A stretch of 32,356 nucleotides of DNA from Vicinamibacteria bacterium (GCA_016650185.1 JAENWE010000053.1:1-32356); one strand, 5' to 3'; shown: positions 6,925-18,016, counted from the stretch's first letter. Notes: generated by a model not told the origin, from the letters alone. Numbers and translations are program-made.

Positions 6925-8343
6925 TCAGACCACCCGGACTTCAAGATCGTAGCTGTGGGCCTTGGTGACTTCACAGGTCACGAACTCGCCGCGGCCCGGC
7001 GGCCTTTCCCCCGGATCGGAGATCAAGACCGAGCCGTCGATCTCCGGAGCCTGCGAGGCCAGACGCCCCGACAGAAGCAGGTCCGTCTCGGGATGAGGGC
7101 CCTCCACCAGGACTTCCATTCGGGATCCGACCCGCGTCTTGTTCCGCCGGAGAGAGATCCTCTTCTGGATGCGCATGAGCTCGCGCTGCCTGGCCTTCTT
7201 GACCCTCGTGGGAACGCGACCCTCGAGGGCAAACGCCGCGGTTCCGTCCTCGTCCGAGTAGGTGAACACCCCCAGGTGATCGAATTCCGCCTGCTCCACG
7301 AAGGTCGTGAGTTGACGGAAATCATCTTCAGTCTCTCCTGGGAACCCGACGATGAAGGTCGTCCGAAAGGCCACGCCCGGGACGCGATCGCGGACCCGCT
7401 CCACCATCCCGAGCAGATTCCCCTTCCCGGTCGGTCGTTTCATCCGCTTCAAAACCGCATCACTGGCGTGCTGCAACGGCATGTCGACATACTTGACCAC
7501 GCGCTCTTCGGTCGCGATAGCGTCGAGGATCTCATCGGTAACGGTGGCCGGATACGCGTACATGACCCGGATCCAGCGAACGCCCTCGATTCGGCCGAGA
7601 CGTCTCAGCAGCGGCGCGAGGGCTCCGCGCTCCCCGAGGTCGAGGCCGTATCGGGTTGAGTCCTGGGCCACCAGCACGACCTCCCTGACCCCGGCCGCGG
7701 CCAGACGCCGAACTTCGTTCTCGATGTCCTCAGGGCGCCTCGAGCGATGGAGACCCCGCAAAGTCGGAATGATGCAGAAAGTGCAGGTGTAGTCGCAGCC
7801 CTCGGAGATCTTGACGAAGGCGGTGTGGGAGGCGGTGGACTGCAGCCTCGGTGAGTCCGCGTCGTAGATCCATTCGGGTCGCTTCGTCGTGCGATCAACC
7901 ATCGTGGCTCGCCCCTCGACCGCAGCCACGATCTCGGGAATCTGGCCCGTCCCGAGGGTGGCATCGATCTCCGGGATCTCGCGCCGCAAGTCCGCATCGT
8001 GGCGCTCCGCCAGGCATCCCGTCACGATCAACCGCCGCGGAGATCCATCCCCGGCTTCCGTTTTGAGCTTGGCCATCTCGAGAATCGTATCGATCGACTC
8101 CTTCTTGGCCCGGTCGATGAACGCGCAGGTGTTGACCACAATGACGTCGGCGGAGCCAGGATCGGTGGCGATCTCGTGGCCGCGACGCTTCAAGGATCCG
8201 AGCATGACCTCGGAATCCACCAGGTTCTTCGGGCAGCCAAGGCTGACAAACCCCACCCTCCGCGGTGCGATGATCGGGGCCGCGGGCGTGGCCAGGGAGA
8301 TCGGCTGCCAGTCAGCGCGGGCGGGCGGCGGGATGGGAGACAC
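6925..8343 (-). CDS. rimO: Ribosomal protein S12 methylthiotransferase RimO
   Basis: SLGCPKNLVDSE, NTCAFI…AKKESI and radical-SAM motif KISEGCDYTCTFCIIP. C-terminal TRAM domain with APEIDG. Confidence 0.95.
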   Translation of the reverse strand: MSPIPPPARADWQPISLATPAAPIIAPRRVGFVSLGCPKNLVDSEVMLGSLKRRGHEIATDPGSADVIVVNTCAFIDRAKKESIDTILEMAKLKTEAGDGSPRRLIVTGCLAERHDADLRREIPEIDATLGTGQIPEIVAAVEGRATMVDRTTKRPEWIYDADSPRLQSTASHTAFVKISEGCDYTCTFCIIPTLRGLHRSRRPEDIENEVRRLAAAGVREVVLVAQDSTRYGLDLGERGALAPLLRRLGRIEGVRWIRVMYAYPATVTDEILDAIATEERVVKYVDMPLQHASDAVLKRMKRPTGKGNLLGMVERVRDRVPGVAFRTTFIVGFPGETEDDFRQLTTFVEQAEFDHLGVFTYSDEDGTAAFALEGRVPTRVKKARQRELMRIQKRISLRRNKTRVGSRMEVLVEGPHPETDLLLSGRLASQAPEIDGSVLISDPGERPPGRGEFVTCEVTKAHSYDLEVRVV

Positions 8344-8348
8344 ATCTC

Positions 8349-8357
8349 AGTCTATCA
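8349..8357 (-). promoter_or_regulatory. Putative extended -10 (TGaTAGACT) 5 nt upstream of the rimO GTG; leaderless-type promoter
   Basis: Minus strand reads cttTGATAGACTgagatGTG-like (…gctTGATAGACTgagatGTG), with no convincing SD. Confidence 0.45.
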
Positions 8358-8471
8358 AGCAGGGCCTGAGCTGCTTGGCGGACCGCGCCTTGGGGTCCTT
8401 CTGCACACAGCCAGGCATCCGACGATGTGGCGGACGTGCCGTCGCTTCGTTGTTTCCGGGGCGCCGCGCCC

Positions 8472-8500
8472 CTGTCAACATGGGAGTCCTCATCTATTAT
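8472..8500 (+). promoter_or_regulatory. Putative sigma70 promoter of the che operon
   Basis: CTGTCA (8472-8477), 17-nt spacer, TATTAT (8495-8500), about 100 nt upstream of the REC gene. Confidence 0.55.
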
Positions 8501-8603
8501 GCATGGGCCCATCCCCAAGGGCGATGGAAACGGCCCCTTGCGGAACGAACTCGAAGTCTCTAAGAAGCAACCCCGAACTCTCAACCGCTGGAAACACGCT
8601 CCA

Positions 8604-8975
8604 ATGTCAAAAAAGACTCTTCTGGTCGTCGATGACTCCCCCACCGCCCTGATGATGAACACCATGCTCCTTGGCCGGCAGCCTTACAACATCGTCTCCG
8701 CCAAAGACGGGCAGGAAGCCGTCGAGAAGGCCATCGCCTCACCGCCGGATCTTGTGGTCATGGACGTCATGATGCCCCGGATGAATGGCATCGAAGCGTG
8801 CCGGGCCATGCGCCAGAATGAGAGTACGCGCCTGGTGCCGGTCATCCTCATCACCACCCGCGGTGAGGAGGAGTACGTCGCCCAGGGCTTCGCCGCCGGC
8901 TGCAATGACTACGTGACCAAACCCGTGAACGCGACTGAGCTTGTCGCCAAGGTTCGCGCCCTTCTCGGAGAGTAA
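8604..8975 (+). CDS. Single-domain response regulator (CheY-like receiver)
   Basis: MSKKTLLVVDDS…DLVVMDVMMP…ITT…YVTKP: acidic pocket, phospho-Asp, Thr and Lys all present. Start taken at ATG 8604, not 8427. Confidence 0.9.
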   Translation: MSKKTLLVVDDSPTALMMNTMLLGRQPYNIVSAKDGQEAVEKAIASPPDLVVMDVMMPRMNGIEACRAMRQNESTRLVPVILITTRGEEEYVAQGFAAGCNDYVTKPVNATELVAKVRALLGE

Positions 8976-8980
8976 AAAGA

Positions 8981-9709
8981 ATGACGCCCCCCAACAAGAG
9001 CGCCTTCGTTCAAAAACTGACCGCTTCCGCCCAAAAACACGCCGAAGAACTGTTCGAACAGAATGAGCGGCTCAAGTCTCTGGTGGCGTCTTTGGAAGAG
9101 AAGCAGACCCAGATTTCTGAGGAACTATCGAGCCTTCGCGAGGAACGCGACGCCCTGCGAGCGGAGCGGGTCAAACTCAAACACGTTCTGGACGAGGCAC
9201 TCGCGCAGAACCGCCGGGATATCGAGCGCTCGTCGCTGGTCGAGCAGCAGTGCACGAGCCTCGCCAATCTCTACGTCGCGACCTTCAAGCTTCACGGCTC
9301 GCTCGAGCGTCCTGATGTCCTCGCCGCCATCAGTGAAATCGTGGTGAACCTCGTGGGCTGCGAACATTTTGGCGTCTTCGAGAGGTTCGGCGAAGAGTTG
9401 AAACTCATCGGAGAGTTCCCGGCGCACCCGAGTCCGGTCCAGCTTCTGCCGGCGGAGACAGGGTTCGTAGCGGACATTTTCAGGGCCAGCGGTCCCTGGA
9501 TAGCCGGACGCGACCCCCAGCCGGCTTCCAACGTGCCGGACGGCGTCACCGCGGTGATTCCCCTGCGCCTCGGATCCGATCTCACCGGAGCGGTGGTGCT
9601 CTTCACCCTTCTCCCGCAAAAGGGCGGCAGTTTCGGGGACGTCGACATCGAGCTCATGGACCTTCTCACCGCTCACGCTGCGACCGCTCTTTTCGCGTCA
9701 CGCACCTGA
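8981..9709 (+). CDS. Coiled-coil + GAF-domain protein (paralog A)
   Basis: About 95-aa heptad-rich N-terminus, then LANLYVATFKLHGSL…EIVVNLVG…AVIPL…FGDVDIELMDLLTAHAATAL (GAF pattern). No TM segment. Confidence 0.8.
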   Translation: MTPPNKSAFVQKLTASAQKHAEELFEQNERLKSLVASLEEKQTQISEELSSLREERDALRAERVKLKHVLDEALAQNRRDIERSSLVEQQCTSLANLYVATFKLHGSLERPDVLAAISEIVVNLVGCEHFGVFERFGEELKLIGEFPAHPSPVQLLPAETGFVADIFRASGPWIAGRDPQPASNVPDGVTAVIPLRLGSDLTGAVVLFTLLPQKGGSFGDVDIELMDLLTAHAATALFASRT

Positions 9710-9752
9710 CCCCTGATCATTTTCCAGGCAACCGAACCAACCCTCATCGAGC

Positions 9753-10271
9753 ATGAAGCAGATCTTTCTGCTGCCCGGCCAGTGGGCCGTTCCTCACGAA
9801 CCGTCGGAACTGACGACCATCCTTGGACCTTGCGTGGCCGTCTGTTTGTTCGACCGGACTCGCGGCATGGGCGGGATGAATCACTTCCTGCTCGCCGCCG
9901 GCGGATCCAACGCCCGAGAGAGAAGCCGTTACGGCGACACCTCCTGTGAGGACCTGGTTCAGTGTCTGTTCGCTTCCGGATCGAGGCCTGGAGACATGGA
10001 AGCCCGGATTGTGGGCGGAGCCAACGTTGGCCGATCTCCGACGTCGGTGGGCGAGAGCCTGGGCGAGAAAAACGCCGAGATGGCGAGGAGCGTGCTTCGT
10101 CGCCACGGCATCGAGGTTGGCTTCCAGGACACCGGCGGCGCCAACGCCCGGCGTCTTCGCTTCCGCACCGGGGTAGGCATCCTGGAGGTCAAGACCATCG
10201 AGGGGACGTCATCATCCACCGCGACCATCGCCGCGGGGGCTCCCGAAGAGAAAGCATCGAGCGCCCGGTGA
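9753..10271 (+). CDS. cheD: Chemoreceptor glutamine deamidase CheD
   Basis: TTILGPCVAVCLFD…GGMNHFLL (catalytic Cys and His), RYGD, GGA, GEKN, DTGG…R. Confidence 0.9.
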   Translation: MKQIFLLPGQWAVPHEPSELTTILGPCVAVCLFDRTRGMGGMNHFLLAAGGSNARERSRYGDTSCEDLVQCLFASGSRPGDMEARIVGGANVGRSPTSVGESLGEKNAEMARSVLRRHGIEVGFQDTGGANARRLRFRTGVGILEVKTIEGTSSSTATIAAGAPEEKASSAR

Positions 10272-10299
10272 ACCGGAGCCGCGCTGAGACAAGAGCCGC

Positions 10300-12018
10300 A
10301 TGAACGACGACGTCGACTGGGAACGCCTCCGCCAAGTCCACCTCGCGGAGTCCGAGGAGCGGCTCGCCACCATGGAGTCCGCCATCCTCGACCTCGAGCG
10401 GAATCCCTTGAGCGAGTCCCCCATCGAATCCCTCCAGCGCGACGCCCACACCTTGAAGGGCAATGCCGGAATCTTCGGATTCGATTCGATCGCCCACCTG
10501 GCCCACGCTTTCGAGGATGCCCTCGCCGCGGTCCAGGCCGGAATAAGAAACCGCCAGCCCGCGGACAAGGAAGCCGTCGCGGTCCTACTCAAGGGAGTGG
10601 ACGCGATTCGGGCCGGCTTGCCGCTGGCCGAGCCGGGGGACCAAATGTCGACGGCCCAGGAGGGTCTCGCCGCAGAACTGCGGACCCTCGGCGCCTTTGG
10701 CTCCCCCGTCCCGAAAGAAGCCCCCCAACCGCCCAAACCCCGAGCGCGTTCCCGCGGCCGCCGGGCCGCCGACCAGCCCCGCGCGGCAAGCCAGTCTGGC
10801 GCCGACGCTGATACGCGGGAGGGCGGCGCACGAGAAACGTCCGACGACGGACGGGCGGCCCGGCCGACCTTGCGCATCGAGGTGGCTCGGGTCGACGCCC
10901 TCATCGAGCTCGCGAGCGAGATCTCGGTCTCTCGCGGTCGCCTGGAGAATCTTCTCACCGCACCCGGACTATCCGACGAGGCGCGCGACGTCCTTGAACA
11001 AACGACTCCTCTTCTCGGCCGACTTTCGGATCTCGCCATGGGCATGCGCCTTGTCCCTCTCGGACCCATTCTGGCTTCCCAGCGGCGCACGGCGCGGGAC
11101 GCGGCTCAGAGCACGGGCAAGGAAGTGGCCCTGCGCATTTCGGGCGAAGAGGTAGAAATCGATCTGGCCTTGGTCGATCGTCTCAGCGAGGCGTTGCTGC
11201 ACCTGGTGCGCAACGCGGTCGCCCACGGAATCGAGGACCCGGCCACCCGGCGAGGCAAAGGCAAGCCCCCGATCGGTCAGGTTTCGCTGAGCGCCTCGCC
11301 TGCGGCTGGTCAAGTGGTGATTGAGGTTGGGGACGATGGCGGCGGCCTGGATCTGCAGGCGATCAGGCAGCAGGCCCGCGCGCTGGGGATAAAGGTCACC
11401 GGCGACGACCGCGAAACCGCTCAATTCGTCTTCGCGAAAGGCCTCACCACCGCGGCTGAGCTCTCGGAGGTCTCCGGCCGGGGGGTTGGACTCGACTCGG
11501 TGAAATCCTCCATCGAGAATCTTGCTGGTTCTATCGAGGTCCATTCGGAAACTGGAAAGGGAACGCTCTTCCGCATGCGGCTCCCTCTGACCCTGGCCGT
11601 GCTGCGTGGGCTGCTGGTGAAAGTGGCCTCCCATCGATACGTGATTCCAATCGATATGGTCCGAGAGTGCCTCGCCACGCCCAAGGACCTTGAGTATCAG
11701 GCCAATGGCACGGGCTTGCTTCGCCTCCCGTCCGGGATGGTCCCGGTGCTGCGGCTCGGGGAGCAGATCCTGGGCGCCGCGGGATCGCTGAATCGTCACA
11801 TAGTAGTGGTCGAGCACGCCGGACAGCGCCTTGGACTTATCGTGGACGCCTTGGTCGGAGACGCTCCCGTGGTGGTCAAGTCCATCGGCCGGGCGCTCCG
11901 GAGTGCGACGAGCATATTCGGCGCCGCCATTCTTGGAGACGGCTACGTGGGCTTGATCCTCGATATTCCTGACATCATGAAGCGCACCATGGCGCTGCGC
12001 GCCGCGCAGACTTCCTGA
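10300..12018 (+). CDS. cheA: Chemotaxis histidine kinase CheA (P1-P3-P4-P5, no P2)
   Basis: HPt AHTLKG, N-box HLVRNAVAHGIE, G1 DDGGGLD, G2 SGRGVGL, LPLTLA and a C-terminal CheW-like domain. Confidence 0.95.
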   Translation: MNDDVDWERLRQVHLAESEERLATMESAILDLERNPLSESPIESLQRDAHTLKGNAGIFGFDSIAHLAHAFEDALAAVQAGIRNRQPADKEAVAVLLKGVDAIRAGLPLAEPGDQMSTAQEGLAAELRTLGAFGSPVPKEAPQPPKPRARSRGRRAADQPRAASQSGADADTREGGARETSDDGRAARPTLRIEVARVDALIELASEISVSRGRLENLLTAPGLSDEARDVLEQTTPLLGRLSDLAMGMRLVPLGPILASQRRTARDAAQSTGKEVALRISGEEVEIDLALVDRLSEALLHLVRNAVAHGIEDPATRRGKGKPPIGQVSLSASPAAGQVVIEVGDDGGGLDLQAIRQQARALGIKVTGDDRETAQFVFAKGLTTAAELSEVSGRGVGLDSVKSSIENLAGSIEVHSETGKGTLFRMRLPLTLAVLRGLLVKVASHRYVIPIDMVRECLATPKDLEYQANGTGLLRLPSGMVPVLRLGEQILGAAGSLNRHIVVVEHAGQRLGLIVDALVGDAPVVVKSIGRALRSATSIFGAAILGDGYVGLILDIPDIMKRTMALRAAQTS

Positions 12019-12039
12019 CGAGGTTTCAAAAAACCGTCT

Positions 12040-12563
12040 ATGACCTTCACTCGACCCAACCTCGAAGCCCCGAACGCCGCCGCCCGATCGGTCCAGTCCA
12101 TGTTGCGCTGCCAGATCGGAAGGGACAGTACCTGATGCCCCTCACGCAGGTGCTGGAGATCATCCGTTACGTCACTCCCACTCCGGTTCCTCAGACCGCT
12201 CCCTGGGTCATTGGAGTCATGAATCTGCGTGGTCGGGTGATTCCCGTGATCGATCTGGCGGTCAAGTTTTCCGAGCCGTCGAGCGCTCCCGACGAATGGA
12301 CCTGTATCGTTCTGGTGGAGGTTGAACTCGGTGGCGATCTGACCACCCTCGGCCTGGTGACGACTCTGGTGAGCGAAATCCACGAACTCCGCGCCGCCGA
12401 TCTCGAGCCGCCCCCGAGTGTGGGAACGCAGATCCGAGTGGAGTTCCTCAAAGGCCTGTTCAAACTTGAGGAGGGGTTCGCGCTCGCGCTTGACCTCGAC
12501 AAGGTCCTGTCGGAAAACGAGCAGGTCGCGGTTCGGGACCTTTCCGCCCGAGGCGGATCGTAG
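12040..12563 (+). pseudogene. cheW: cheW with an apparent 1-nt deletion near 12120 (frameshift, or sequencing error)
   Basis: ATG 12040 frame gives MTFTRPNLEAPNAAARSVQSMLRCQIGRDST* (TGA at 12133). The -1 frame gives KGQYLMPLTQVLEII…VIGVMNLRGRVIPVIDL, a clear CheW. One added base joins them into a normal CheW first strand (MLRCQIGxGQYLMPL). Confidence 0.75.
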
Positions 12564-12623
12564 TGTCCCAAATGAACGCTTTGCCTGGGCCTTCGGACTG
12601 AAGCCTGCCGTTCGGGCCAACAC

Positions 12624-13493
12624 ATGCAGCGAGTGATCCCGTTTTCGACCGAAGACCCGAACGCTCCGCCCGAACTTGGCCCGCGGGAGTTCGCCCAGAT
12701 CCGCAAGCTGATGGAAGCTCGCACCGGCGTGCATCTGACCGAGGCAAAAGGAGCCTTGGTCATGGCCCGCCTTGGAAGAAGGCTGCGGGAATTGCGCCTG
12801 CGCTCGTACCGCGACTATATGGCCCACCTGGACGCGCACCCTGCCGAGGAAATCGCCGAACTCGTGGATCGACTTCTCACCAACGAAACCCGTCTCTTCC
12901 GAGAAGGCTGGCAGTTCGACTTTCTGGAACAGACCATTGTCCCGCTCTGGCGGAAGGAGGCGGGCGCCTCTTTGGATCGCAGCTTGAGAATCTGGTCGGC
13001 CGCCTGTTCCACCGGCGAAGAACCGGCGAGCCTGGCTGCGGTCATGGATGCCCGCTTCCCTGTCTCCGAGGGCTACCGCGTCACCATTCTCGCTACCGAT
13101 CTATCCAGTCGAGCTCTGGCCGCGGCGCGCACCCTCACCTTCCCGATTGCGCGAGGGCAGGACATCCCGCCCTCGTATGCCCGCTATTTCGAGGACGTGC
13201 GCCCGGACCGGATGCGGCTCCGCGCCTCCTCCTCCCGCTTGATCCGTTTTGAACCGATGAACCTTCTGGCTCCTTCCGTGCCAGCGGCGAGTTTCGATCT
13301 CATCCTCTGCCGGAATGTGCTCATCTACTTCACCCGCGAGACGAAGCGCCAGGTGATCGATCACATGTGGCGCGCGCTCAAACCTGGCGGATTCCTTTTC
13401 GTTGGTCACGCCGAAAGCCTGGTTGGGGTGATCGAAGGACAACGCCCGGTGAAGCCCGCGATCTACCTCAAGCCCCTGAGCGTTAGATCATGA
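12624..13493 (+). CDS. cheR: Chemotaxis methyltransferase CheR
   Basis: TNETRLFRE, IWSAACSTGEEP, ILATDLS, FDLILCRNVLIYF, GHAESL. Confidence 0.95.
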   Translation: MQRVIPFSTEDPNAPPELGPREFAQIRKLMEARTGVHLTEAKGALVMARLGRRLRELRLRSYRDYMAHLDAHPAEEIAELVDRLLTNETRLFREGWQFDFLEQTIVPLWRKEAGASLDRSLRIWSAACSTGEEPASLAAVMDARFPVSEGYRVTILATDLSSRALAAARTLTFPIARGQDIPPSYARYFEDVRPDRMRLRASSSRLIRFEPMNLLAPSVPAASFDLILCRNVLIYFTRETKRQVIDHMWRALKPGGFLFVGHAESLVGVIEGQRPVKPAIYLKPLSVRS

Positions 13494-14518
13494 TCGATGT
13501 CCTCGTGGTCGACGACTCCGCCCTGGTTCGCCAGACCCTCAAGGAGCTGCTCGAGAGATCGGGCGAGTTCCAGGTCACCCTGGCCGCCGATCCGTTCATC
13601 GCCGCGCGCCGAATCGCCCTGCGGCGGCCGCAGGTGATCGTCCTCGACATCGAGATGCCAGGGATGGACGGTCTCACCTTTCTCACTCGTCTCATGGCCA
13701 CCGACCCCATCCCCGTGGTGATCTGTTCGGCGAGGGCCGGCGAAGACGCCGCGGTGGCGATCGAGGCCCTGGCCAGGGGCGCCATCGATGTCCTGCCCAA
13801 GCCACGGCTGTCGGTGAAGGACTTTCTGAGTGACACCGCCGCGCTGCTCGTCGACACCGTCCGCGCCGCTTCCCAGTCGAAACGCGGTTCGGCCGCAGTT
13901 CGCGGTCCCCGGGCGCCCGTGACCGAAATACCCAAGGGTGTCGCCGCGACGTGGGTGGTCGCCATCGGCGCTTCGACCGGAGGCACAGAGGCCCTGGCCG
14001 TGGTGCTCGGCTCGCTCCCCAGGGACTCACCCGCCGTTCTCGTCGTGCAGCACATGCCCGAGGGATTCACCAAAGCCTTCGCGGGCCGTTTGAACGGCTT
14101 ATCCCCGATGCAGGTGAAGGAGGCCGAGGACAAGGACGTGATCCAGCCGGGACAGGCGTTGCTCGCCCCGGGAAACAAGCACATGTCGGTGGTCAGGGAC
14201 GGCGCGCGATTTGTGGTCAAGCTCGATTCGGAGTCTCAGGTCAACCGGCACCGGCCAAGCGTCGACGTCTTGTTCCGTTCCGTGTCCGAAACCTTCGGAT
14301 CGAGGAGCGTGGGAGTCCTGCTCACGGGCATGGGCCGCGACGGCGCAGCCGGGCTCTTGGAGATGAGGAACCGGGGCGCTCAGACCATCGCGCAGGATGA
14401 GGCCTCATCCGTTGTCTTCGGAATGCCGAAAGAGGCCATCGCGCTCGGAGGAGCCTCCCGAATTCTGGCCCTCGAAGGCATCGCCTCGGGCATCATCGAC
14501 CTGCTGCCCAGACCCTAG
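13490..14518 (+). CDS. cheB: Chemotaxis methylesterase CheB (REC + CheB domain)
   Basis: VVDDS…LDIEMPGMDG receiver; catalytic motifs GASTGG, VQHMP, HRPSVD and LTGMGRDG. ATGA overlap with cheR. Confidence 0.95.
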   Translation: MIDVLVVDDSALVRQTLKELLERSGEFQVTLAADPFIAARRIALRRPQVIVLDIEMPGMDGLTFLTRLMATDPIPVVICSARAGEDAAVAIEALARGAIDVLPKPRLSVKDFLSDTAALLVDTVRAASQSKRGSAAVRGPRAPVTEIPKGVAATWVVAIGASTGGTEALAVVLGSLPRDSPAVLVVQHMPEGFTKAFAGRLNGLSPMQVKEAEDKDVIQPGQALLAPGNKHMSVVRDGARFVVKLDSESQVNRHRPSVDVLFRSVSETFGSRSVGVLLTGMGRDGAAGLLEMRNRGAQTIAQDEASSVVFGMPKEAIALGGASRILALEGIASGIIDLLPRP

Positions 14519-14534
14519 CTTCAGCTGTTACGGA

Positions 14535-15353
14535 CTAGGCGCCCGCCGGACCCTTGAGCATGTCTATGAAGCCCCGCAAAGTGGCCAGTTTCCTTTCCGA
14601 AGTCATATGGAGGCGCGAAGCGTAGACCGCGGTCGCGGCCTGCGCCCCCAGAAGCCGAAAGAGTTCGAAGTCGAGTTCGCTGAAGGCGGTCTTTTGCTGG
14701 AAGAGCTTGTGGATACTCAGCAGGCCTACGACCACACCGCTCAGGTCGAAAGGGATCACGGCCAGCGGAGCTTCAAAAGGAGCCGCCTCCGCCACTCGAG
14801 TGTCGGCGGCGAAGTGCGGCAGTCCCGACTCCAGGCAGGCGCCGATCACTCCCTCTCCCCGGCCCACGCCGCTCACGTCTGTCTTCTGGCCCTCCGACAA
14901 GACCAGTTCGGCTCTGCCGGTTTTCTCATCCACGATGAACACGTGAAAAGCTTCGGCCCCAACCAGATTGGTGGCGATCTCCTGAATGGAACGGAGGACT
15001 TCGGCGTGATCCAGCGAGGCGTGAAGCTGCGAGGCGGCGACATGCAGGTTGGTCAGGAGGTTGACCTGCTCGCTGAGGTCGGCAAAACGCTGAGCAGATT
15101 CGCTGAGCTGGGTCCGCATCTCCACCAATTCGTCCTTGGCTTCCCCGAACTCGCGATCAAGCGCCATGCGCTCTTCTTCCGATAGGCGGAGCCGGGCCTG
15201 GATGTCCGCTTCCTGAGGACTCCCGCCCAGGGACTCGAACGCCCGCAGACAGGCGCGGAGCTGGGCGTTCTCACGCACAATGTCCTCGACGAGGTCCTGC
15301 GTCTTGACGAAGAAGTCCGACAACTCCCGGTAGCGATTCGATTGCTCAGCCAT
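14535..15353 (-). CDS. Coiled-coil + GAF-domain protein (paralog B)
   Basis: Heptad-rich N-terminus, then LTNLHVAASQLHASL…EIATNLVG…AVIPF…FSELDFELFRLLGAQAATAV. Aligns by eye with 8981..9709. Confidence 0.8.
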   Translation of the reverse strand: MAEQSNRYRELSDFFVKTQDLVEDIVRENAQLRACLRAFESLGGSPQEADIQARLRLSEEERMALDREFGEAKDELVEMRTQLSESAQRFADLSEQVNLLTNLHVAASQLHASLDHAEVLRSIQEIATNLVGAEAFHVFIVDEKTGRAELVLSEGQKTDVSGVGRGEGVIGACLESGLPHFAADTRVAEAAPFEAPLAVIPFDLSGVVVGLLSIHKLFQQKTAFSELDFELFRLLGAQAATAVYASRLHMTSERKLATLRGFIDMLKGPAGA

Positions 15354-15356
15354 CGA

Positions 15357-16823
15357 TTACCTCAGGATCCTACCTCTGCTGATCGTGCCCGTCCGCGAGA
15401 GTTCCTGATCCCGCAACTCTTCAAGTCTCCGGCCGGCCTCCTCGACGAAGGCCTCGAGGGGGTCGAGCCGGGTGAGGGCCTCTCCGGAAATCGGATTGTC
15501 CACAAACAGCAGGGCCACGGCATCCCCGTGGGCCCGCAGTGGAATCAGGGCTGCCTCCAGGGAACGGCCGCGAAGGATGGAAAGGGCCGACATTTCCTTC
15601 CAGAAAGAGGCCTCGGTCACGAAACTTTGAGCCGAGCGGCCCTGAAGCGCCTCGGCGAATGGAGAGGCATAAGCAGAAACAGTCAGGTCAAACCCCATCG
15701 GGCCGAGGGGGAAACCGACGCCTGAGGCGGGATAGAGAATGTCCTCGCTGCGGATCAGGAGGATGACTCTCTCCACCATGCCGCTCGCTACCCGCAAGAG
15801 AAGATCGCGGATGCCCACGCTCTCCCCGATGCAGCCAAGCAGATCGAGACCATCGATCAGACCAATGGGCGCGGCGGAGGCCACGGAGCCGTGTGGGCGA
15901 CCATCGATGACCTGCTGAAGCACGTTCAGCAGCTTGGTCGAGAAGGCCTCAAGATGACGTTCGAACAACGCCTGGTTGAGCCGGCCCAAGGTTGGCCGAA
16001 ACACCACGCGCCGGGCCCCGGCTTGACGACCCTTGCGAACGATGGTCGGATCCGGATCCGGGGTCACGAGCACCACTCGCGGGGCGTTGGCGAAGCCGCG
16101 GAGCCGCATGGTCAGCTCGAGGCCGCCCGAAAGATCGCCGCCCGTGGGATCGGGGATGGAAAGATCCACCACGGCCAGAAACATGGACCCCGCGCGGCCC
16201 ACCTGTTGCGCGAGTTGCAGTGCCGACTCCAAGGTGGCAGCGCCCACCACGTCCTCATAGCCGTTTTCAACCAGCCGTTTCATGAGGAATGCACGGACGT
16301 CGGCCTCGTCATCGACCACCAGAACGGAAGGACGCACTTCCGAGGGAATCGAGGGCGCCTTAAGCGGCGCCTCGATGACCGGCGCCGCCTCGGGAGCCGC
16401 CAGGGCGGTGGCCGCGTCGCGGCGACTCTCGTCCAGCTCCCGGGCCAGGTCCATCAGAAGCTCCTGGGCATCCACGCCCACGGAGAGGGTTTCCCGCTCC
16501 AGTGAATAGCCCTCGATCTGCTTGGGAACCTCGTTCGAAAGCACGAAACCGAAATTGCCGTCGCGGAGCCGCGAAAGGGCTCCCAGGTCAGCGGCTATTC
16601 CGGCCGTGAGTCGCTTCTCCCACTCCGCTGGAGCCATGGACGAACGGGGCACGCGCTCGGAAGAGCCAGGCGAAAAACAGGCGACCACCCGACCATTTCG
16701 GAACACGATGGCGCCGACACCGACTTCGGTCTCCACCCGGATGTACCCAGTTCGTTGGGTAAAGGCCACGATCTGGACGATGTCCAGAAGGGGAAGGTCT
16801 TCAATCCGACCGGAGAGGCTCAA
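15357..16823 (-). CDS. DUF4388 (PatA-N-like) + receiver domain + C-terminal GAF-like region
   Basis: MSLSGRIEDLPLLDIVQIV…RTGYI…GAIVFRNGRVV…GNFGF…QELLMDLARELDE is a DUF4388 pattern. Central VLVVDDE…VVDL…VLVT…FRP is a receiver. TTG start after GGAG. Confidence 0.75.
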   Translation of the reverse strand: MSLSGRIEDLPLLDIVQIVAFTQRTGYIRVETEVGVGAIVFRNGRVVACFSPGSSERVPRSSMAPAEWEKRLTAGIAADLGALSRLRDGNFGFVLSNEVPKQIEGYSLERETLSVGVDAQELLMDLARELDESRRDAATALAAPEAAPVIEAPLKAPSIPSEVRPSVLVVDDEADVRAFLMKRLVENGYEDVVGAATLESALQLAQQVGRAGSMFLAVVDLSIPDPTGGDLSGGLELTMRLRGFANAPRVVLVTPDPDPTIVRKGRQAGARRVVFRPTLGRLNQALFERHLEAFSTKLLNVLQQVIDGRPHGSVASAAPIGLIDGLDLLGCIGESVGIRDLLLRVASGMVERVILLIRSEDILYPASGVGFPLGPMGFDLTVSAYASPFAEALQGRSAQSFVTEASFWKEMSALSILRGRSLEAALIPLRAHGDAVALLFVDNPISGEALTRLDPLEAFVEEAGRRLEELRDQELSRTGTISRGRILR

Positions 16824-16875
16824 AGGATCTCGTGCTCCGGAGGGACCGCTTCAATCACCGTCTCGAATTCGGTAC

Positions 16876-17145
16876 TCAGTGCGCCTTGTCTGGAGTATCG
16901 ATCGCGTTGCCCCACTCCCGCAGTCGCTCGCGGTCGGAAGCGGCATAGAGTTCGTCGGACATATCCGCCACTTGATCCGCCACTCCGCCAACCACCTCGA
17001 ATTCCTCGGCCTGCTGGGAGAGCAGGCCGAGGTGGTGGGCCACCGCATCGAGTTTGGGAACGCTCCTATCAATCGCCGTCAGCAAACCTTCGACGAGTTG
17101 CACCAGCGCAGTGCGCGAAAGACCGTCATGCCAGGTCGGTTCCAT
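16876..17145 (-). CDS. Small helical hypothetical protein (89 aa)
   Basis: ATG at 17145 (MEPTWHDGLSR…), preceded by TATACT at 6 nt. Amphipathic acidic helices; fills the gap before the DUF4388 gene. Confidence 0.6.
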   Translation of the reverse strand: MEPTWHDGLSRTALVQLVEGLLTAIDRSVPKLDAVAHHLGLLSQQAEEFEVVGGVADQVADMSDELYAASDRERLREWGNAIDTPDKAH

Positions 17146-17151
17146 GCGCGG

Positions 17152-17157
17152 AGTATA
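17152..17157 (-). promoter_or_regulatory. Putative -10 (TATACT) 6 nt before ATG 17145; leaderless-type promoter
   Basis: Minus strand reads caTATACTccgcgcATG, with no SD. Confidence 0.5.
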
Positions 17158-17230
17158 TGGTGAGAGCACGGGCCGGACCGTTCGCGGTACGATTTGGGCT
17201 GCTCCATTCCTGTGGAGCTGAGGAGCGAAC

Positions 17231-18016
17231 ATGAAGCCTTGGATGAAGATCGCCATCGGGTGTTTGGCGACATCGATTATCGCCCTGTTCCTTTTCGTGG
17301 CCGGGTTGGTCGGCTTGGGGTATTGGGCCAAAGGCAAGGTCGAGGAGGTCGCCGGAGGCGGCGCGGCGGTGGCGGAGGCTCGGAAGACTGCGAACGCCGT
17401 GCCCTTCAACCGCCCACTCGGGAACGTCATCCCGGAAGCTCGCCTCGTCCGATTCATCGAGATCCGGGCCAGCGTCTTCTCGGTCTACGAGAAATACCGC
17501 GGCGAGATCGAATCCCGAATGGCCAAAGTCAAGGAAAGCAAATCGGTCGATTTCGGCGACCTATCAACCGGTCTGACCCTGGTGGGCGAGATCCAAAAGG
17601 CCGAAGCTCTCGCCCTGGCCAGGCACGGGATGTCCGAGCGGGAGTACGCCTTCATCACCGGCGAGGTCTACAAGTCGATGTTCACCGAGGCCGCCGAGAG
17701 TCGTCAAGAGGTCATCGAGAGCGCAGCCGGGGCCGCGAAGACGGCCTCGGACGCCGTGAAGGGGATGACAAGGAACGACCCCTCTAGCCTGCCCCCGGAG
17801 GCGCGGGAGGCCATCGCCCAGGCAGGCGCCGACATCGCAGCGAGTTCTCGCGACGCCTCTGAGCAGGTCGCGGAAATGCGGATCGCCCCGGAGAACACGA
17901 TTCTCTTCAAGAAATACAAAGCGGAGCTGAAAAAATACGCCATGCCCGGCCTCAAGATGTTCTTCGACGAAGACGCCCAAGCGGGTGACAACGATAAGGC
18001 TCAGAAGCAGCCCTAG
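17231..18016 (+). CDS. Membrane-anchored helical hypothetical protein
   Basis: GAGGAG SD, one N-terminal TM helix, Ala/Glu/Lys-rich helical remainder, GC3-rich codons. Confidence 0.7.
   Translation: MKPWMKIAIGCLATSIIALFLFVAGLVGLGYWAKGKVEEVAGGGAAVAEARKTANAVPFNRPLGNVIPEARLVRFIEIRASVFSVYEKYRGEIESRMAKVKESKSVDFGDLSTGLTLVGEIQKAEALALARHGMSEREYAFITGEVYKSMFTEAAESRQEVIESAAGAAKTASDAVKGMTRNDPSSLPPEAREAIAQAGADIAASSRDASEQVAEMRIAPENTILFKKYKAELKKYAMPGLKMFFDEDAQAGDNDKAQKQP

Follow-up and report, generated by a model that had tools for sequence, protein, structure and literature searches.

A chemosensory (Che) gene cluster of a Vicinamibacteria bacterium, located at positions 8,604 to 17,145 of a 32,356-nucleotide stretch of DNA (GCA_016650185.1 JAENWE010000053.1:1-32356; the whole stretch is hereafter called the window), is an ordinary Che pathway that has recently lost its cluster-encoded receptor, a methyl-accepting chemotaxis protein (MCP), and that contains two copies of an uncharacterised, widespread module formed by a receiver (REC) protein and a coiled-coil/GAF (CC/GAF) protein. 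The cluster starts with a stand-alone receiver gene (REC1), which is followed by CC/GAF-A, cheD, cheA, cheW, cheR and cheB, and it converges on a second unit that includes an 89-aa open reading frame (ORF), a PATAN-receiver gene (PATAN-REC) and CC/GAF-B. The original prediction, made from the sequence of the window, had described the same locus as a receptor-less system with the CC/GAF proteins as non-canonical inputs or outputs. When a receptor gene is missing from a Che cluster, relatives and orphan receptors have to be checked before a receptor-independent reading is adopted. We assign a probability of about 0.6 to the reading in which the cluster MCP was recently deleted, orphan MCPs provide the input, and the REC and CC/GAF proteins form an output or modulator arm.

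Distribution of the cluster MCP in related genomes

The window is contig C53 of the source genome (G000), a metagenome-assembled genome (MAG) of 3.85 Mb in 535 contigs that is an estimated 79% complete; close homologs of its proteins are named Vicinamibacteria, of the phylum Acidobacteriota. We searched 17 genomes of the same genus, 11 of which gave a locus with a full-length CC/GAF-A ortholog, and took gene orders in relatives from tblastn maps. A 565-aa HAMP+MCPsignal gene lies between miaB and REC1, directly upstream of REC1, in 8 of the 11 congener loci. In the other three, as in the window, miaB directly adjoins REC1 (four MCP-less loci out of 12). All other genes from leuS to mlaE on the long contig of congener G006 stand in the order of the window (synteny map). 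The 260-nt spacer at the corresponding site of the window (8344-8603) gave no MCP remnant in blastn, only the coding flanks being matched, and the congener MCP had no tblastn match anywhere on the contig. The MCPsignal profile likewise had zero matches there, in agreement with the original prediction that the window holds no MCP gene.

Outgroup loci were collected with a CC/GAF profile, one genome per species, and the best 80 of at least 596 matching stretches were analyzed; they represent the best matches to CC/GAF-A and come from MAGs, mostly of Acidobacteriota, five being of the same genus and many others close kin. In 40 of the 80 loci CheD follows the CC/GAF gene, and in 39 of these the CC/GAF gene itself comes directly after a receiver gene. 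Twenty-seven of the 40 clusters are complete through CheB, and 26 of the 27 carry an MCP, which is found inside the cluster in 23 cases (usually in the CheA/CheW interval), upstream of REC in two congeners, and together with CheW after CheB in one; the remaining complete cluster, from a congener, has no MCP. Identity between the congener cluster MCP and the in-cluster MCPs from another family of this order amounts to 58-60%. Because of the presence of an MCP in 26 of the 27 complete clusters and of this similarity to the outgroup MCPs, the standard form of the cluster is taken to carry its own receptor. Judging by its distribution, the absence of the MCP is a recent loss within one genus and not a trait of the cluster type. 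The receptor-less state that was originally put forward as a property of the system is thus not supported, since orthologous clusters normally possess the very MCP that is missing here.

In a tree of the REC1-to-CheD DNA, the MCP-less loci form two pairs, the window with G014 (Shimodaira-Hasegawa-like approximate likelihood ratio test (SH-aLRT) 94) and G008 with G015 (SH-aLRT 100). A single MCP change is possible on the genus tree with weak support (61).

Both members of the second pair, G015 (C496:3286-5994) and G008 (contigs C193 and C32), encode an additional MCP at another place, which shows 61-64% identity to the cluster MCP and could be its relocated copy; in G015 it stands in tandem with a relative of one of the orphan MCPs described below (C322 type). 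No MCP of this kind was found in the genome of the window or in G014. Two other genomes of the genus, G012 (97% complete) and G013 (92%), have no CC/GAF match, and G012 also lacks a CheR match above the cut-off and a CheA dimerisation-domain match. From these absences, the whole cluster is probably dispensable and has been lost in some species of the genus.

Orphan MCPs and receptor-modifying enzymes

The source genome has five MCPsignal matches that correspond to four genes, all on other contigs. Among these are two orphan MCPs with HAMP domains, located on contigs C322 (546 aa) and C114 (556 aa), which are, respectively, 48% identical to the congener cluster MCP over the full length (47.6% by tblastn) and 45% identical to it (46.3% by tblastn). 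Across the signalling domain, neither has a gap relative to the congener cluster MCP (alignment A3). A hand count on the same alignment gives this length group ∼118 residues between the hairpin tip and the end, or ∼17 heptads per arm, class 34H being defined by 17. The MCP of a second cluster, on contig C161, has 7 extra residues in each hairpin arm and thus falls into a different length class. Congeners that keep the cluster MCP also possess counterparts of both orphans, with 44-50% identity to that MCP. Hence orphan receptors that share the signalling-domain length of the cluster MCP exist in the same genome, which counts against the original receptor-less reading.

The ratio of nonsynonymous to synonymous substitution rates (dN/dS) between the window and its MCP-less sister species is 0.12 for CheR, 0.08 for CheB, 0.17 for CheD and 0.15 for CheA, with 0.07 for MiaB (dS in this comparison is 0.6-1.2, near saturation). 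REC1 has dN/dS values of 0.04-0.08. Because dN/dS is low between species that both lack the MCP, CheR, CheB and CheD have been kept under purifying selection since the loss. Their retention fits continued work on the orphan MCPs. The cluster CheR is the sole strong CheR match in the source genome. Four congeners with a retained cluster were searched, and in all of them the cluster CheA is the sole CheA dimerisation-domain match; two of the four carry another CheR domain besides that of the cluster, within an open frame of >1,000 aa.

The in-cluster MCP of one related family (L033:15871-17559, G020:C11) ends in GFVRF, which fits the xF/YxxF/Y CheR-tethering pentapeptide, a motif given for 34H receptors in part of the text of Tran et al. 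2008 (PMC2577667). Such an ending is absent from the congener cluster MCP and from both orphans of the source genome. The orphan MCP on C114 (L040:4202-7118) is directly followed by a gene for a 417-aa protein, whose receiver is 55% identical to the CheB receiver of the window and whose remainder has no Pfam match.

Gene content and organization of the locus

Gene identities were assigned with Pfam, and spacings were read from coordinates and translations. The features of the locus are as follows.

8344..8603 (no strand): MiaB-REC1 intergenic region, the MCP site in most congeners, empty here
8604..8975 (+): REC1, stand-alone CheY-like receiver, 123 aa (Pfam Response_reg, 101 bits; ORF open from 8427, Met at 8604)
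8981..9709 (+): CC/GAF-A, 242 aa, ∼100-residue helix followed by GAF (Pfam GAF_3, 37.8 bits)
9753..10271 (+): CheD receptor deamidase (Pfam CheD, 66.6 bits)
10300..12018 (+): CheA kinase with P1, weak P3, P4 and P5 (Pfam Hpt, HATPase_c, CheW)
12040..12563 (+): cheW across a 1-base frameshift (Pfam CheW; uninterrupted ORF 12135-12563, 142 aa)
12624..13493 (+): CheR methyltransferase (Pfam CheR, 170 bits, and CheR_N)
13490..14518 (+): CheB methylesterase with receiver domain (Pfam CheB_methylest, 222 bits, and Response_reg)
14535..15353 (-): CC/GAF-B, 272 aa, CC/GAF-A paralog (Pfam GAF_2, 39.5 bits)
15357..16823 (-): PATAN (DUF4388) + receiver + C-terminal domain, 488 aa (Pfam DUF4388, 56 bits; Response_reg, 37.8 bits)
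16876..17145 (-): 89-aa ORF, conserved small protein without a family (conservation in congeners, dN/dS)
17231..18016 (+): 261-aa ORF with an N-terminal hydrophobic segment, without a family, divergent from the 89-aa ORF

The order REC, CC/GAF, cheD, cheA, cheW, cheR, cheB that was originally read from the sequence was recovered gene by gene with Pfam; all genes are present, with the qualification that cheW is frameshifted as assembled. Several further details of that reading agree with our data. The stop codons of cheB and CC/GAF-B are 16 nt apart in convergent orientation, REC1 is separated from CC/GAF-A by 5 nt and PATAN-REC from CC/GAF-B by 3 nt, and the locus does contain two REC + CC/GAF modules. 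The two CC/GAF proteins are paralogous to each other (E 4e-23 in BLASTP, with 32% identity across 233 aa), the peptides quoted in support of this being present in the translations. The catalytic motifs of CheA, CheB, CheD and CheR could also be read in the translations.

CheR, CheB and CheD each exceed the Pfam cut-offs; against the NCBIfam CheD models, every score of CheD is under the model cut-off. In CheA, the Hpt, HATPase_c and CheW domains are above their cut-offs, H-kinase_dim (P3) is sub-threshold (20.4 bits, cut-off 23), and no P2 domain was detected with Pfam. NCBIfam gave the cluster proteins only generic CheA, CheB, CheD and CheR names; neither of the CC/GAF proteins has a model there, nor do the 89-aa and 261-aa ORFs. 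The flanks consist of housekeeping genes according to Pfam, with a MiaB-like radical-SAM enzyme on one side and LptE and LeuRS on the other. A promoter and terminator scan of positions 8200-17400 was uninformative (one promoter-like site versus 0.8 expected; 12 terminator-like sites versus 7.2 ± 2.2). Public sequencing runs with assembled contigs that contain the stretch number four, all from one study.

The cheW frameshift and possible decay of the pathway

The CheW domain scores 100 bits, and the Pfam match covers model positions 14-136 only. The uninterrupted cheW ORF (12135-12563) lacks the conserved N-terminal ∼33 residues, which a three-frame translation compared with congeners places in another frame, from the ATG at 12040 (consensus MTFT...SMLRC.IG.GQYL in five congener loci). 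The G-run at 12122-12124 is one base shorter than in relatives, resulting in a -1 frameshift. Behind 12121, one contig of run X1 (depth 4.4) contains an additional G, and one of run X3 (depth 2.2) reads as the window; with both depths below 5, the frameshift may be either a real variant or an assembly error.

This frameshift, which recurs in one independent contig (run X3), together with the absence of the MCP, could mean that the pathway is decaying in this strain, the MCP having been deleted, cheW frameshifted and the other genes becoming pseudogenes. The two congeners without CC/GAF, one of them also without CheR above the cut-off and without the CheA dimerisation domain, point in the same direction. 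Yet all other ORFs are intact and have low dN/dS, and the MCP-less cluster is intact in three other species. Furthermore, the extra G in the run X1 contig restores the frame, and with 2-4x depth at a homopolymer an assembly error is equally likely. We therefore consider decay to be quite unlikely.

The CC/GAF protein family

The AlphaFold2 (AF2) model of CC/GAF-A (mean per-residue confidence (pLDDT) of 89.4) consists of a helix at residues 6-104 followed by a GAF domain at 110-239. Its best Foldseek matches are GAF domains (E 2e-7), the nearest solved structures being the cAMP-bound GAF domain of Lcd1 and then the GAF domains of PDE5, PDE2 and PDE10. K214 and D222, which are invariant in the CC/GAF family, line up with K and D in the 'NK...DE' segment of PDE10A GAF-B; CC/GAF differs from the NKFDE motif at the N, F and E positions. 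A family-wide search of 1.84 billion representative proteins gave 1,248 matches at E<=1e-30, mostly of 240-300 aa. The Pfam matches to CC/GAF are to generic GAF models only, and we found no description of the family in the papers searched on GAF and PATAN accessories of che clusters; in PMC8396549, GAF is mentioned only generically.

A receiver gene is adjacent to CC/GAF in 71 of the 80 loci, and a che gene is found within the stretch examined in 63 of them. In a phylum sample of 150 high-quality genomes, CC/GAF (E<=1e-30) is present in 38, all of which are CheW-positive, i.e. in 38 of 91 CheW-positive versus 0 of 59 CheW-negative genomes, related genomes not being independent; leaving out two CheW-positive, CC/GAF-negative genomes that are flagged as unpublished (G088 and G184) gives 38 of 89. 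By these gene distributions, the link between CC/GAF and Che pathways, which the original prediction had assumed for the two proteins of the window, is well supported.

Two contexts recur, and the query that matches best follows the context. Type A, REC-CC/GAF-CheD-CheA-..., is best matched by CC/GAF-A, and type B, CheA-CheW-...-CheR-CheB-CC/GAF-REC, by CC/GAF-B. In Vicinamibacterales, type B takes the form CheW-MCP-HEAT protein-CheR-CheB-PATAN-REC-CC/GAF. Two CC/GAF paralogs in one Che cluster were also observed in five loci of Thermoanaerobaculia and others (L062, L067, L069, L071 and L081), so the twin arrangement is not unique to the genus. Of the 38 genomes in the phylum sample that have CC/GAF, 36 show a single match, and a heterodimer, as considered in the original prediction, therefore cannot be the general mode of action of CC/GAF.

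These data bear on the possibility of an intrinsically receptor-less system, in which the soluble CC/GAF proteins, perhaps as a heterodimer, would replace the MCPs both as the input to CheA and as the substrate of CheR, CheB and CheD. Such a role is suggested by a cluster that has no MCP and yet keeps all three receptor-modifying enzymes under selection, by the CC/GAF genes that flank the core, and by the abundance of Glu/Gln pairs in the helix before the GAF domain (alignment A1). There is also a precedent in the part of PMC4574943 that concerns B. cereus RsbM/RsbK, where a CheR-like enzyme is reported to methylate a signalling helix of a non-MCP sensor kinase. However, CC/GAF coexists with an MCP in 26 of the 27 complete clusters, and because of this co-presence it is not a substitute for the MCP. 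The model predicts one helix of ∼100 residues and not an MCP-type hairpin, CC/GAF has no MCPsignal match, orphan MCPs of matching length exist, and nearly all positive genomes of the phylum sample have one CC/GAF copy. Taken together, we regard a receptor-less system as very improbable.

Second module and second Che cluster

In the genus of the window, the tail of a type-B operon (89-aa ORF, PATAN-REC, CC/GAF-B) lies in inverted orientation at the end of the type-A cluster. CC/GAF-B orthologs from other families of the order are located behind CheR-CheB-PATAN-REC on the same strand. PATAN-REC comprises DUF4388 at residues 4-133 and Response_reg at 167-281, the architecture of a PATAN-type regulator. 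Its receiver keeps the Asp residues; the conserved Lys is replaced by Arg ('VFRP') in the window and in G006, with 'VFKP' in seven PATAN-REC sequences of other families (alignment A4). The ∼170-residue C-terminal domain is poorly modeled by AF2 (pLDDT 32-74) and matches nothing in Pfam at E<=1. A GAF-like nature of this domain, suspected from alignment A4, was not supported by hhalign against the CC/GAF profile (1.9% probability), which leaves the domain unassigned.

No gene in the locus is more conserved than the 89-aa ORF (98.9% identity with G006; dN/dS of 0.018 and 0.009), and by this conservation it is a real gene. It has no Pfam family, and its Atlas clusters contain hypothetical proteins that are commonest in Acidobacteriota. 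The neighboring 261-aa ORF (17231-18016) is 68% identical in congeners, with a dN/dS of 0.25.

The second Che cluster of the source genome, on contig C161 (L042:1-7428), encodes a partial CheW-like domain at the contig end, a REC-PAS-adenylate/guanylate cyclase, a triple-CheW protein, a 4HB-HAMP MCP and a CheB-like esterase. Its MCP has one more heptad per arm, and its CheB-like esterase has no receiver match. The partial CheW-like domain is probably the P5 domain of a CheA, a kinase that would run off the contig.

Output and proposed pathway

FlhA was found in none of 18 genomes of the genus and in one of 41 genomes of an order sample, in line with the non-flagellar pathway that had been predicted. 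The source genome has 15 T2SSE ATPase matches (pilus/secretion ATPases). REC1 has retained the full set of phospho-acceptor residues, with D10, D11, D54, T84 and K106 invariant in 31 orthologs. Prediction of a complex of two CC/GAF-A copies with REC1 gave scores of 0.27 and 0.05 relative to a mark of 0.32, in runs without controls, and speaks neither for nor against binding.

CC/GAF might alternatively modulate receiver phosphorylation, for example as a ligand-gated CheY~P phosphatase or sink that takes the place of CheZ, CheC or CheX, without being an output. The CheC, CheX and CheZ families had no match in five of five genus genomes searched, CheD being present, and CC/GAF is tightly coupled to a CheY-like gene. 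Known CheY phosphatases have acidic/amide pairs on helices, and in CC/GAF the helix residues at the GAF junction (E88 and N96) are nearly invariant or invariant. On the other hand, CC/GAF has no sequence or fold similarity to known phosphatases, the helix residues differ from one subfamily to another in both spacing and identity, and many Che pathways are known to work without a dedicated phosphatase. A phosphatase or sink is accordingly an unlikely role for CC/GAF.

The reading that we prefer is a Che-like pathway of a non-flagellated bacterium, with a deleted cluster MCP, orphan-MCP input and a REC + CC/GAF arm. Its typical layout outside the genus is REC - CC/GAF - CheD - CheA - MCP - CheW - CheR - CheB. 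Within the genus, the MCP is located upstream of REC, and some species, this one among them, have lost it by a clean deletion that happened once or twice. The kinase core would now be fed by the two orphan transmembrane HAMP-MCPs encoded elsewhere, which would remain substrates of CheR, CheB and CheD. CheA would phosphorylate REC1 and possibly the PATAN-receiver, and each receiver would work with the CC/GAF protein encoded 3-5 nt behind it. CC/GAF is probably a coiled-coil dimer, whose GAF pocket could add a small-molecule input, e.g. a cyclic nucleotide. The REC + CC/GAF pair may act as an output or modulator arm on a non-flagellar target, such as type IV pili, as PATAN regulators do in cyanobacteria. 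The second module forms the 3' end of a different Che operon in other families and adjoins the type-A cluster in this genus. CC/GAF would serve as a CheY partner, modulator or output.

Several observations weigh against this reading. The basal branching of the genus is unresolved, and it is the outgroup clusters that point to a loss and not to a gain. In a MAG that is 79% complete, gene counts are lower bounds, and unassembled DNA could contain a relocated copy of the cluster MCP. The coupling of the orphan MCPs to the cluster CheA is putative. A receiver is not adjacent in nine of the 80 loci, a che gene is missing from the stretch examined in 17, and this sample consists of the best matches to CC/GAF-A among at least 596, many of them close kin. 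The substitution of Arg for Lys may make the PATAN-receiver a poor phospho-acceptor. Finally, the cheW frameshift as assembled may impair receptor coupling in this strain, the read evidence being split and shallow.

A broader proposal, which we offer tentatively and at clearly less than even odds, is that REC + CC/GAF forms a widespread output/modulator module of non-flagellar Che pathways in Acidobacteriota, Nitrospirota and Myxococcota. A CheY-type protein phosphorylated by CheA would dock on a dimeric CC/GAF protein whose GAF domain reads a second messenger, and the genus would possess two such modules that share one kinase, the PATAN receiver of one module being directed at the pilus motor. 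If true, chemoreceptor and nucleotide signalling would converge on one small adaptor. CC/GAF proteins form a large family whose genes are nearly always neighbors of CheY-type genes and Che operons, in phyla with unknown chemosensory outputs. Identification of the CC/GAF partner and ligand would reveal the processes under Che control in soil Acidobacteriota that lack flagella.

Comparison with known systems

Cyclic nucleotide-binding GAF domains (Leptospira Lcd1, PDE2, PDE5 and PDE10, and CyaB2) are the best fold and sequence matches of CC/GAF (5w10, E 7e-7). CC/GAF differs from them in having only 12-18% identity, a long N-terminal helix and no effector domain attached, and a ligand cannot be inferred from the K214/D222 match.

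MCP-less Che clusters are known from other groups. As described in part of the text of Tran et al. 2008 (PMC2577667), the Geobacter alpha and beta clusters contain cheA, cheW, cheB and cheR and no mcp, their receptors being presumed to be encoded elsewhere, and the beta group, of unknown function, also occurs in M. xanthus; this bears out what the original prediction states on MCP-less clusters. Its further statement that such clusters contain GAF genes has no counterpart there: the term 'GAF' is absent from the main text of that paper and, among the places listed, appears in the supplement only in rows of an MCP domain table. For M. xanthus Che8 (MXAN_4751-4759), no cluster Mcp is listed in the corresponding part of Moine et al. 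2014 (PMC3945109), which links Mcp7, McpB and McpJ to Che7 and Che8. Like the window, the Geobacter alpha and beta clusters and Che8 possess cheA, cheW, cheR and cheB without a cluster mcp, and they are non-flagellar or of unknown function. In contrast, Geobacter beta and Che8 are MCP-less as types, whereas the cluster type of the window carries an MCP in 26 of 27 cases and lacks it only in 4 of 12 loci of one genus.

In the M. xanthus Che7 system, MXAN_6961 is presumably the HEAT protein Cpc7. With this assignment, the order of Che7 locus tags (CheW-Mcp-HEAT protein-CheR-CheB), as far as it is given in part of PMC3945109, matches the gene order that precedes the CC/GAF-B module in other families; a PATAN-REC/CC-GAF tail is not described in that part of the paper. 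The window, unlike Che7, has the tail only (PATAN-REC, CC/GAF-B and the 89-aa ORF), inverted and abutting another cluster.

The PATAN-REC protein of the window differs from the regulators of the cyanobacterial Tax/Pix systems in its extra C-terminal domain of ∼170 residues, the Arg in place of Lys, and the CC/GAF gene partner. It shares with Tax/Pix an N-terminal PATAN/DUF4388 domain joined to a receiver, a Che-like kinase and a non-flagellated host, and in Synechocystis, PATAN regulators bind the type IV pilus motor, as stated in part of the text of bioRxiv 10.1101/2021.06.11.447907.

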